A stretch of DNA of 64,000 nucleotides, from assembly GCA_965661285.1 (NCBI GenBank), contig CBFIDD010000001.1, positions 96,001-160,000 on the forward strand, given 5' to 3'. The notes under the pieces are model-generated. The model was not told the DNA's origin and searched no databases. It was given only the letters and a program-made list of their open reading frames with translations. A program made the position numbers and the translations under genes. Each line of letters begins with the position of its first letter. Within the stretch, counting starts at the first letter, position 1. The DNA is from Poseidonia sp. GTDB lineage: Archaea; Thermoplasmatota; Poseidoniia; Poseidoniales; Poseidoniaceae. This document shows, in pieces, positions 22,108 to 25,100 of the stretch.

Positions 22108-25100
22108 TCAAGCCTTCTTGTCGTAGCTCAGGTCATCCCAAGTTCGGAGCAAAGCACCGTCTCCGTTGATAGGAGCATAGCTCAGGGTGATGGTTACATC
22201 CTCAAGGGGCGTACCGTCTGGAGCGTGGGTGCGCACAAAGATCGTGTCTCCGGAGTTAAAGGTCGAAACCGACCGAGTCTCCGTTTCCGAGATTTGTTCT
22301 TTGGTCACCGAGTCCACGAAGGTCACAAAGGCGTCGCTGTTGGCGGGGTTGAACCCGTACACGCCGGCACTGTCAGCCAGGTTGACCGAGTAAGTGTTGA
22401 GTGCACCCGTGGCGTTGGTGTAGAACACCTTCACCTCAACCGCTTGGGTTGCAAGCGGCGTTTGGGATTGCTCAACGGTGATGCGCCAGTGTCCTTCATC
22501 AGCATCGAAGCCGTTGATGTCTTCAATGTCGAAGGTCACACGGGGCACACCCTTCACGTCGGTTTCGGCAAGGCTGGAAGCCCACACGTAGATGACACCG
22601 GACAGAACCACGGTGATGGCGACCATCAGGATGGTAGCGATCACAGGGCTGACGGCAGCGTCGTCCTCAGCCATCGTCTCCACTTCTTCTTCGTCGTCAG
22701 CACGGCGGCTGGCGAAGGAGAGCGCACTGACGAAGAGACCCGTGAGGGCCACAGCGACAATGCTTGGGGCGAACGATGGAACAGCGCTGGCACCGATGGT
22801 CTCCACAACGTCTGGCAGGAACTGGTCCGTGGCCAGGAAGTTGCTGGCTGGCTGGTTGGCGTGGTTACACACGTCAGCCGTAGCCAAGGAGGTCATGATG
22901 TTGTTACACCAGTTGCTGTCTTCGAGGAGCGGTCGGCGTTCCGACGTCTTCGTAGCGTTCTTACCGTATTGTCCGGGCTTGGACCATGGGTCGTCGCTCT
23001 GCACGTTGTTGATGATGGCGTAGTGCGAGGAGGGCTCATCGGCCTGGAAGCGGTCTGCAGCGGTCACCGACATGTCGCAGGGGTTGGCCAAACAGGTCAC
23101 AACATCCATCTCGACCCACACATGAGTGGTGTCCTTGGTGATGTAGACATCCTCGGTGTACTTGACGCTGGCACCGTAATCGGGCACAGCGTAGTAGCGA
23201 GTCAACTCGACATCATCGTGTCCATCCGTGTGGTAGGTGATGGCCAGCATGTGGTCGTATCGGTAGGGACCCTCGTCGCCACCGCCGTTGACGGCGACGG
23301 TGACCGGCACGTAGGTACCGGTCATGACGTTGGTGACACCGTTGAAGCTGAAGCCAGCCTCGTCGTCGAAGAAGTAGTCTGGGACCTGCTCACGGACGTT
23401 CTCAACACGAACACCGATTTCCTTCGTAGCCACACCTTGCTGGTAGTCAGCAATGGCCATCACGCTCTGGTCGTAGTTTGGCACGTACGTGTCGTACTCG
23501 CCCTGCGTGGTTGGGGCCGTTGGTGTGTCTCGGAGGACCAAGCGGATCTGACAGTACTCGGAACCGGACGGACCGATCTGGTGGATACCGTTGTTGTTCA
23601 GGTAGTCAATCTCCCAGTCGTTGGCGTTGGTGGTTGCGTCCTCGATGAGGTCGAACACGAGGTCATCACCGACGATGGTCGTGGTGAAGTAGTTCGTGTA
23701 GACACACTGGTCCGTGGATTCAACCGTCCACGTCAGGTCGTCCATTTCGTGGTCAACATCCGTCTTGATGGCGGAGAGGTCGTAGGTCAGGTTCGCCACG
23801 TTCTCGTCATCTTCCATCAACGAGATGGACCATGGGAGTGCTGGAATCGAACCGTTGTCAGCCTCGATAACATCGCCAGCGGTGCGGTTCCAGTCCTTGA
23901 TGACCGGAGCGTCGTTCACCGGTGCGACCGAGAAGACCACGTCAAGCGGCGTGGCGTCTTGGTTCTCAGCACCATCATCGGAAAGTCCGAGGGTAATGGT
24001 ACACTTACCACCCAGCTCGTTCGCTGTGTTTTCGGTGATCACCAATTCGTTGTTCACGATGTCAACCTCAAAGGCGGAACAGGTCGTTGCGGATGCATCG
24101 CCCGTGTCAACAGCGCTCGCGGTCCACACATAGGATTGGCGAGTTGGAGATTGCTCGTTCGCCATGTCCCAGATGTAGGAGCGTGATGCGTTTGAGACAT
24201 CGCCCAAGAACTTGGTGTGCGTACCGAAGCCTTCAGGCAGGATGTTGAAGATGTCTTCATCATCACCGTTTTCATCAACACGAGTGTCAACGGAAATTTC
24301 AGGCATGCACGATGCGCCAAGGGTTGGGTTCGTTGCACAGATGACCGGAGCGTCGTTGATGTTGTTCACCGTGAAGGTGATGTTGTGGGTATCGCTCAAA
24401 CCGTTGCTGTCGGTGACCACGAAGGAGAACACCTGCGTACCGAATTGGTCAACGTGAGGCGTGATGGTCACGTCTTGGTCGTTGAGGGCGCTGTGAAGCA
24501 AGTCGTCGTTGTTGAAGGCCACTTGCGTGCCCTCGGCCATGGTCCAGGTCAAGTCGGACTCTTGGTCCTGCACGTCGTCAGCCAAGTTGGTGAGGCTGAA
24601 GGTGAAGGCGCCGGAGTCTTCGTCTCGGCTGAAGTCCACAAGACCGTCGCTCGTGTCCGCCCCATCGGTATCGATGACGGGGCACGCACGCTTGATGTCA
24701 ATCGTGCTCTGAACGTTGGTCGTATCGCCGGTTCCGGTCACATAGGTGTTGTCGAAGACGACGTTGGTGGCCATGGAAATGTCCTCAACGGTGGCCCAGT
24801 CGTAGGCACAGGTTGCTGGCGTCTTGAGCATCAAGTCGTAGTTCTTCTGACCGGTGGCCGTTGTGCTGCCCTTGAACGACTGGTACACCAAGACCTCAGA
24901 TGTCAGGGTACCGTCAAGCAGATCGTCGTGGGTCAATTCAACGGTCATGAACTTGGAGAGGTTCTGCAGGGTTGCAGAGCTGTCCAAGGTTTGGGTCGGG
25001 TGAGCCACGCTGATGTCGGCCGTGGTCTCGGCTTGAACGACTGCGACGATGTCAATCTCGTCTGGCATGCCGCCAATTCGGCTCCATGGGACACCAAACT

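Follow-up and report, generated by a model that had tools for sequence, protein, structure and literature searches.

A complete type IV pilin encoded in frame behind a giant surface adhesin in Poseidoniales

Introduction

Archaeal type IV pilins begin with a class III signal, in which a short basic leader precedes an invariant hydrophobic alpha-1 helix; in model archaea the -2 residue of the cleavage site is basic, a rule that is built into the usual predictors. We take PilA1-6 of Haloferax volcanii as examples of this Pilin_N/DUF1628 class III family. FlaF and FlaG, which have the archaellin fold, stay anchored in the membrane and bind envelope proteins. Here we describe a gene in which a pilin signal lies not at the start of a small protein but at residue 4450 of a giant one of 4,631 amino acids (aa). 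The gene occupies positions 22108-36003 of a stretch of 64,000 nucleotides from Poseidonia sp. (GenBank assembly GCA_965661285.1, contig CBFIDD010000001.1, positions 96,001 to 160,000), which we call the window; all features of the window given below lie on its reverse strand.

A second group of described systems concerns archaeosortase signals of the PGF-CTERM kind (a short motif, a transmembrane (TM) helix and basic residues), whose usual location is the extreme C terminus. Work by Abdul Halim et al. in 2017 reportedly identified HVO_0405 of H. volcanii as a substrate of the archaeosortase ArtA with an internal PGF signal. Two reviews describe H. volcanii ArtA processing this internal tripartite signal in the product of a gene fusion, and one of them describes the fusion as strain-specific, the downstream part being the product of a NifU-domain gene, a cytoplasmic domain (PMC6098224, PMC9263693); on that account, an internal position does not prevent ArtA processing. 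In the modular pilins PilB and PilC of Streptococcus sanguinis, one coding sequence joins the pilin covalently to an adhesive module, and the adhesin is thereby borne on the pilus; there the module is on the pilin C terminus and stays covalent after leader cleavage.

The Poseidonia protein resembles each of these systems in part. Like archaeal type IV pilins, its C-terminal module belongs to the Pilin_N hidden Markov model (HMM) family and has a beta-sandwich head behind an invariant hydrophobic alpha-1, with a small residue at -1; unlike them, its signal comes not after a short, positively charged N-terminal leader but after an acidic loop, which itself follows a TM helix and the giant ectodomain, and its -2 to -4 residues, as in free Poseidoniales pilins, are acidic or neutral. 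With HVO_0405 (PMC6098224, PMC9263693) it has in common that another domain continues in frame after a motif-TM-basic signal. It differs in that the fusion has been retained throughout an order, in that the part after the signal is a pilin and passes through the membrane again, and in its motif, which is VPSF rather than PGF. In contrast to the S. sanguinis pilins, its adhesin is placed on the N-terminal side of the cleavage site and outside the mature pilin, so that cleavage would sever the covalent link and only non-covalent contact could remain. Like FlaF and FlaG, the module combines a helix with a beta-sandwich and may stay in the membrane holding an envelope protein; unlike the FlaF/FlaG-like open reading frames (ORFs) of the window, it has an AVSPVIAT cleavage motif and matches Pilin_N. 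The literature that we found on Poseidoniales (Marine Group II) surface proteins and on archaeal pilin and archaeosortase processing, supplementary gene lists aside, does not describe this arrangement: the parts are known, and the combination is new. Taking the evidence as a whole, we give about an even chance to the explanation that the gene encodes a giant adhesin whose pilin serves as its membrane or pilus foot and is probably cut in the loop.

Results

A single frame that ends in a membrane hairpin

On translation, the giant gene is a single stop-free frame of 4,631 aa followed by a stop codon at 22108-22110. A Kyte-Doolittle scan finds only three hydrophobic segments in it, at residues 11-29, 4402-4432 and 4454-4472. 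The first (35917-35973; hydropathy 2.48) follows MLGNKKNKKK and is presumed to be a Sec signal or anchor. The other two belong to a tail that runs GASAVPSFAPS, a first TM helix (TM1) IVAVALTGLFVSALSFAS, RR, a loop ADDEEEVETMAEDDAA and VSPVIATILMVAITVVLSGVIYVWASSLAE, with about 150 residues more before the stop. Its elements are the sorting-type motif AVPSFAPS (residues 4407-4414; 22762-22785), TM1 (residues 4415-4432; 22708-22761; hydropathy 1.95, within a modelled helix at 4412-4437), the basic pair RR on the predicted cytoplasmic side (residues 4433-4434; 22702-22707), the acidic loop ending in the -1 Ala (residues 4435-4450; 22654-22701; modelled with a per-residue confidence, pLDDT, below 50), the pilin alpha-1 helix or class III H-domain VSPVIATILMVAITVVLSGVIYVWASSLA (residues 4451-4479; 22567-22653) and the beta-sandwich pilin head (residues 4485-4631; 22111-22551). 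The predicted cleavage site has A on one side and VSPVIATILMVAITV on the other, VSPVIATILMVAITVVLSGVIYVW beginning at residue 4451, and 197 residues follow RR in all. Pfam matches the remainder of the giant protein only weakly, to Big_9, and precomputed labels of its relatives add NosD/beta-helix and Big_9.

An earlier note on this DNA, made from the letters alone, had placed VPSFAPS...SFASRR (residues 4408-4434) at 22702-22782 and an in-frame ATG at 22674, and had the frame run past RR through an acidic linker into a pilin. Every one of these coordinates is exact on translation, and the frame is indeed single and without a stop. Because the three hydrophobic segments and the AlphaFold model fit it, we infer the topology that the same note had proposed: after the signal some 4,400 aa lie outside, TM1 leads in to a cytoplasmic loop, and a second TM helix leads back out to about 160 aa more.

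The fusion is genuine and order-wide

When the last 240 aa (the hairpin and pilin, with the 45 aa that precede TM1) were searched against 60 genomes of relatives, the whole tail, with TM1, loop and pilin together, was present in 39, at identities down to 40%. By group, these were 31 of 36 genomes of the genus, both genomes of family f2 and 6 of 22 in family f3; the five genus genomes without a match are 67-87% complete. Uninterrupted frames of 4,227-5,055 aa were found in 26 relatives' genomes, and among 15 shorter frames 14 begin or end within about 110 bases of a contig end, G026:C32 being the one for which this measure is lacking. A wider collection held 538 confirmed relatives (from 600 pattern matches, with one genome per species), and in the best 80 of these loci the junction is open in 80/80, as far as each locus extends. 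Their titles give Poseidonia, Poseidoniaceae, Poseidoniales or earlier synonyms, except for one assigned to Verrucomicrobiales. This last record, NZEQ01000026.1 (L059), is a metagenome-assembled genome contig filed under Verrucomicrobiales bacterium that carries a giant-gene tail 98% identical to ours, probably through a binning error.

The junction is also bridged by contigs from four sequencing runs. A DNA contig of run X1 spans 22403-22920 with 1 difference, and RNA-library contigs from three studies span 21979-23482 (X15), 22622-23360 (X17) and 22535-22918 (X18); the RNA-library contigs, in which transcript starts and ends are not visible, prove neither transcription nor a single transcript. 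Parts of the region are without cover in these contigs, and run X17 shows one loose end, at 22653, to which we attach no meaning. The only insertions or deletions in the bridging contigs, at 22081 and 22103, both lie past the stop, and the coding part has none.

Protein databases tell the same story at larger scale. A word-index search found same-tail proteins in 258 clusters, of 2,547-8,105 aa, under the automatic names 'type IV pilin' (NCBI) and 'FlaG/FlaF family flagellin (archaellin)' (JGI). In a scan of 1.84 billion representatives, matches that take in both the helix and most of the head all lie, as far as E ~1e-19, at the extreme C terminus of a long protein or fragment, and free-standing pilins appear only at 38% identity or less. 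We found no two-gene form of adhesin and pilin among the Poseidoniales relatives and loci searched. A search for a giant homologue that lacks the pilin (query residues 3700-4400) in 4 genomes of genera g11, g10 and g5 gave no match, which is uninformative since it had no positive control.

The order-wide gene fusion is therefore genuine, and we hold this with near certainty. A missed stop (which, with misassembly, the earlier note had wished to see excluded), a frameshift or a chimera of two genes would have to recur as the same open junction in the independent assemblies of many studies and in the contigs of four runs whose indels fall solely after the stop codon; we found nothing in favour of such an assembly or annotation artefact and regard its probability as negligible. 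The same note's question of whether the fusion is conserved across Poseidoniales is likewise answered by the open junction in 80/80 loci, with no two-gene form among the loci searched.

The module carries an intact and constrained pilin signal

The C-terminal module passes the curated cut-offs of two pilin models: Pilin_N PF07790 matches at E 1.4e-9 to 2.7e-10 (39.1-41.4 bits against a cut-off of 25.2; 33.9 bits against the entire 4,631-aa protein) and TIGR02537 at 36-40.4 bits against a cut-off of 20. The helix SPVIxxILMVAITV had been read from the letters as the Pilin_N/DUF1628 class III signal, and both profiles bear that out. The fused helix, VSPVIATIL[M/L]VAITVVL[S/A]GV[I/L]YVWA.SLA, is nearly identical in every family to that of 'type 1' free pilins.

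At the cleavage site, the -1 residue is Ala in 80/80 loci and VSPVIAT is invariant, alongside a -2 position that takes 10 kinds of residue (A in 34, M in 17, T in 15 and seven others). The Ala at -2 in our protein had been thought to make cleavage doubtful. That doubt falls because the order's free pilins do not have a basic -2 either: among 16 fetched from 11 genomes (L142-L157), which form two classes with Ala at -1 in 16/16, the -2 residue is Q, E, V or F and in none is it basic. Together with the two free pilins of the genome itself (L001 and L002; 167 and 163 aa), they share an [N/D/E]-rich-x-A leader end (for example NEQA, NEEA or DDEA) directly before VSPVIAT. Poseidoniales pilins thus depart from the basic -2 rule, and predictors built on that rule would miss them.

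Conservation, expressed as the mean majority-residue fraction over 51 sequences and the last 472 residues, is highest in the pilin helix (0.976), followed by RR (0.95), AVPSFAPS (0.90, with V, S, F and P invariant), TM1 (0.72), the head and the last adhesin ectodomain (0.67 each) and the loop (0.65). Synonymous diversity in the helix is ordinary (about 0.5, with a mean of 0.45), and the constraint therefore acts on the protein, not on the DNA. The pattern suggests that the cleavage site is under selection.

AlphaFold models the mature pilin alone with a pLDDT of 82.5, as a helix at residues 3-32 and a 10-strand sandwich, and models the head at about 90 within a 472-aa construct. A Foldseek search with the mature pilin returned four structures in the Protein Data Bank (PDB) at E<=1e-3, three archaellins (E 4.5e-4 to 9.6e-4; best 5z1l_A, E 4.5e-4, TM 0.41) and Kir7.1, the Cuniculiplasma filament subunit coming next at 1.5e-3; the 472-aa multi-domain model gave no match at E<=1e-3. 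Homology of the fused head to free-pilin heads was considered and rejected, BLASTP finding none. Taken together, we judge it very likely that the pilin module is functional.

The loop and the question of an internal start

Counted from the first basic residue through -1, the loop is 18-22 aa long (median 19) in 86 loci, and a basic residue opens all 86. The ATG noted earlier does exist in frame (22672-22674, M4444, inside the loop), but conserved it is not: Met occurs in 65 of 86 loops, at -7 in 45 and at -2 in 17, and is absent from 21 (22 of 87 once L039 is read by eye).

An alternative is that the pilin is mainly made alone from an internal start, at ATG 22674 or its equivalent, with the fusion frame incidental. 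The Met in most loops fits this, as do the purine-rich Glu/Asp codons upstream of the ATG, which look like a ribosome-binding site. Yet about a quarter of the loops are without Met, its position varies among the others, and the frame is uninterrupted in 80/80 loci. Nor does synonymous diversity dip clearly just ahead of the ATG (0.45-0.47; mean 0.45); its single dip, at SRRADDEE (0.28), falls in two-fold-degenerate codons. We therefore find this alternative very improbable. An embedded promoter or ribosome-binding site was looked for in the same synonymous-site conservation, which gives no clear signal of one.

A sorting-type signal ahead of the pilin

The segment before the loop has the tripartite layout of an archaeosortase substrate: AVPSFAPS, an 18-aa hydrophobic stretch and RR. 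In about ten proteins of the genome the C terminus consists of a [T/L/V]P[S/G/A/F]x motif, a TM helix and RR, to which a short acidic tail is often added, and one of them, an unrelated protein of 606 aa, ends in LVPSFAPS-TM-RRTRD. That terminal signal is its sole similarity to the giant protein (BLASTP 50% over 30 aa, E 5.8e-4), and the 5,574 ORFs of the genome hold VPSFAPS just twice; a third 'PSFAP', in an enzyme-like ORF of 391 aa, is a chance occurrence with no signal. The label 'PGF-CTERM-like' rests on this motif-TM-basic layout and on the likeness to one true C-terminal signal of the genome, and an archaeosortase-type sorting signal is a plausible reading of the internal segment.

The adhesin's last domain and the pilin head probably belong together

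The last ectodomain of the adhesin, which we call domain A (residues 4207-4402; 22798-23385), is beta-rich and modelled at a pLDDT of about 90 over most of its length. It aligns with residues 81-286 of a short homologue, P0036, at 54% identity. This protein and three others of 400-700 aa (P0024, P0042 and P0043) join domain A straight to the pilin head, as does a 439-aa paralogue in genome G010 (L141 715-2034, reverse strand). These homologues have the same two domains in the same order on the outer face; unlike the giant protein, they have no motif, TM1, loop or helix between them and carry a truly terminal motif-TM-RR sorting signal at their end. The possibility that they replace the giant protein in small-genome genera was rejected, since they were not found in g5-g8 or g10. 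As a separate observation, L141, P0024 and P0042 carry Asp-rich repeats of the DxDxDG type, Ca-binding by eye, before the terminal signal; these may be the 'thrombospondin' genes that Rinke et al. 2018 count among adhesion genes.

Because the hairpin-less proteins join the two domains directly, we modelled the contact between domain A and the head. The complex prediction scored 0.64 (runs 0.63, 0.66 and 0.64) against 0.00 for the best of 3 controls, a mark that 58 of 80 solved complexes and 2 of 110 mismatched pairs also attain. These counts hold only roughly here because our own paired alignment was used, and they must be read knowing that the two chains are parts of one polypeptide, pairs of which pass easily; such a score speaks for binding but does not demonstrate it. 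Between runs, at least 96% of the contacts agree, with a partner pLDDT of at least 83. Among the predicted contacts are, on domain A, FNGVTNVMTGTYVP and DVVET and, on the head, ATQ and VYGFNPANS, and the contact stretches include residues 4221-4233 and 4543-4555. That interface residues are more conserved than the rest was rejected, the difference being slight and not significant. The model suggests that the pilin head sits against the last adhesin ectodomain, the pilin being the adhesin's 'foot'. Since both ectodomains flanking the hairpin seem to belong together, the pilin is more likely an adaptor or foot than an independent product, and we think it reasonably likely that the two halves stay associated.

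These results bear on the reading of the gene as a true polyprotein, in which PibD and ArtA would yield a lipid-anchored adhesin and a free pilin at 1:1, with independent fates. It draws on the same signal evidence as the explanation that we prefer, and HVO_0405 offers a precedent for an internal ArtA signal (PMC6098224, PMC9263693). However, relatives of the head occur only beside domain A, in fused and hairpin-less proteins alike, the head has no BLASTP likeness to free-pilin heads, and domain A and head are predicted to dock. One pilin per 4,450-aa adhesin would also be an odd way to supply subunits when free pilin genes exist. We consider independent products improbable.

Maturation and pilus genes in the order

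The genome encodes an ArtA-type archaeosortase at G000:C2:167703-168494 (TIGR04125, 88.8 and 86.8 bits against a cut-off of 75). It also has two non-archaellum type IV pilus gene sets outside the window, one at C1:343-347 kb with an ATPase and split PilC-like proteins and a Tad-like one at C3:55-58 kb. Both sets occur in g1, g2, g3, g4, g9, g11 and g12, and the fusion in all of these except g11; in 14 genomes of g5-g8 and g10 we found no pilus gene sets, no fusion and no pilin matches. Because the genomes are related, this co-occurrence is a weak argument.

One of the pilus gene sets holds a further observation. A Cys-bracketed motif of about 30 aa, C.EWEYWN..L.D.TLPGNGCP, occurs both in P0036, after the head (residues 449-484), and in a predicted loop of a 339-aa PilC-like protein of that set (G000:C1:345799-345897; L128 4119-5138). 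It recurs in about 35 genomes at 50-72% identity, and the giant protein is without it. In many relatives, the matches to two queries, the 540-aa PilC-like protein and the 1,092-aa surface protein described below, contain a single in-frame TGA or TAG close to their beginning. The likeliest account is that these stops fall in non-coding DNA, the TTG or GTG starts of the queries being upstream of the true starts.

Gene neighbourhood

A conserved surface protein, about 1,056-1,092 aa long and bearing a TM helix at its C terminus, is encoded directly upstream of the giant gene (36493-39771); it is context and not a proven part of the system. It has no Pfam match, a signal-like N terminus and a likely start at the Met of MKKMTPV, and it adjoins the giant gene in 6/6 distant genomes that have both genes on one contig; it may be a partner of the adhesin. 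Immediately upstream of these two surface-protein genes, 39867-45478 encodes an outsized MacB/FtsX-type permease of 1,529 aa (FtsX 101 bits, MacB_PCD 26 bits) and an ABC ATPase of 341 aa. Further on, 57755-63166 holds an archaellum-type set, in which T2SSF and T2SSE are Pfam matches and the other names come from reading the sequence: a FlaJ-like protein of 600 aa (T2SSF), a FlaI-like ATPase of 571 aa (T2SSE), a KaiC/FlaH-like protein of 245 aa and two FlaG/FlaF-like ORFs of 163 and 215 aa. A link between the fusion and this operon was rejected: the FlaJ-like gene occurs in g1, g2, g9, g10 and g11, and the fusion in g1, g2, g3, g4, g9 and g12.

Discussion

In the explanation that we prefer, the giant adhesin, presumably exported by Sec, ends in a membrane hairpin made of two back-to-back signals, with both large parts facing outward. 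The first signal of the hairpin would be of the archaeosortase type (AVPSFAPS, TM1, RR), and the second is a class III signal with its complete pilin. Prepilin peptidase would cut after Ala4450, as in the free pilins of the lineage, and the freed alpha-1 helix could then enter a type IV pilus or its assembly platform together with type 1 pilins, still holding the adhesin non-covalently. By the same cut, the tripartite signal would come to lie at the end of the adhesin, where ArtA could act on it. Of these steps, cleavage in the loop appears somewhat more probable than its absence, judging by the constrained cleavage site, and processing by ArtA is put forward more tentatively, its chances being rather below even. 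The earlier note had offered two outcomes, independent products at 1:1 or an uncut tether; the evidence points to a place between them.

Several observations weigh against this proposal. All of its processing steps (cleavage, lipidation and pilus incorporation) we infer from the sequence. No Peptidase_A24 (PF01478) was found at E<=1e-3 in the genome, which is 93% complete, and no PF01478 match exceeds the cut-off in 41 genomes of the order. The sole peptidase candidate, a protein of 331 aa at G000:C1:54457-55449, outside the window, scores 25.8 bits with Arc_PepC_II, below the cut-off of 29.9; it belongs to a conserved type of membrane protein of 331-339 aa, matches PF01478 (16.5 bits) in a relative's copy only and has no match among NCBIfam models and PDB sequences. 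The suggestion that artA and pibD accompany the fusion thus stands for ArtA, while pibD is represented by a divergent candidate below the cut-offs. The sorting signal fares similarly: the layout and its conservation agree with the proposed PGF-CTERM-like signal, but no PGF-, PEF- or other CTERM model matches the last 399 aa at E<=1, and the internal site is absent from the 6 matches to PGF_CTERM (TIGR04126) at E<=10 genome-wide. In an HMM built from 9 terminal signals of the genome, the internal site scores 4.9 bits (E 6.9, rank 28 of 4,733), held-out true tails scoring 6-13 bits, and it falls outside the top 25 once the VPSFAPS protein is excluded from the model. The fold matches of the pilin are modest (TM ~0.4), with Kir channels scoring like archaellins, and BLASTP finds no resemblance between its head and those of the genome's two free pilins. 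Conservation at the predicted interface is only slightly higher than elsewhere, at 0.74 compared with 0.66 (899 of 10,000 random subsets do as well) or, in a second comparison, 0.725 compared with 0.66 (1,226 of 10,000). The hairpin-less homologues show that the head can work without a pilin helix, which suits a static structural role equally well. Finally, one or two losses during genome streamlining may account for the joint occurrence of fusion and pilus genes, and g11 carries the pilus genes without the fusion.

Much of this would also fit an uncut, static two-helix anchor, in which a pilin-like module has been exapted as a membrane foot and its head braces the base of the adhesin. The predicted contact between head and domain A, the head as a plain ectodomain in the hairpin-less homologues, the failure of any prepilin peptidase to pass any cut-off, the missing CTERM match and the JGI name 'FlaG/FlaF family flagellin' for relatives all suit such an anchor. 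It leaves unexplained, however, why the -1 Ala is invariant (80/80) beside a free -2, and why a helix matching that of free type 1 pilins is held at 0.976 while TM1 drifts at 0.72; moreover, the FlaF/FlaG-like ORFs of the window (62023-63166) differ at their N termini, which have no AVSPVIAT motif. We regard the uncut anchor as unlikely, if still a serious competitor to a foot that is cut in the loop.

A more ambitious form of our proposal is a pilus adhesin that loads itself, in which a single cut in the loop both matures an adaptor pilin and makes a terminal ArtA substrate. ArtA would then release or re-anchor the 4,400-aa adhesin, which, clamped to the pilin head, would be lifted on a pilus of free pilins that have the same alpha-1. 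This is a speculative and rather unlikely elaboration. If true, PibD and ArtA would have here their first natural common substrate, and the most abundant planktonic archaea would have a novel means of attaching an adhesin to a pilus tip.

Rinke et al. 2018 describe Poseidoniales (Marine Group II) as the most abundant planktonic archaea of surface oceans, uncultured and with particle attachment inferred from gene content only. The giant gene encodes the largest surface protein here, of about 4,500-5,000 aa across at least three families, and has so far carried only automatic database names. Its architecture couples two archaeal surface-maturation systems that have been studied separately in Haloferax, and it is of high interest both for archaeal cell-surface biology and for the ecology of Marine Group II.

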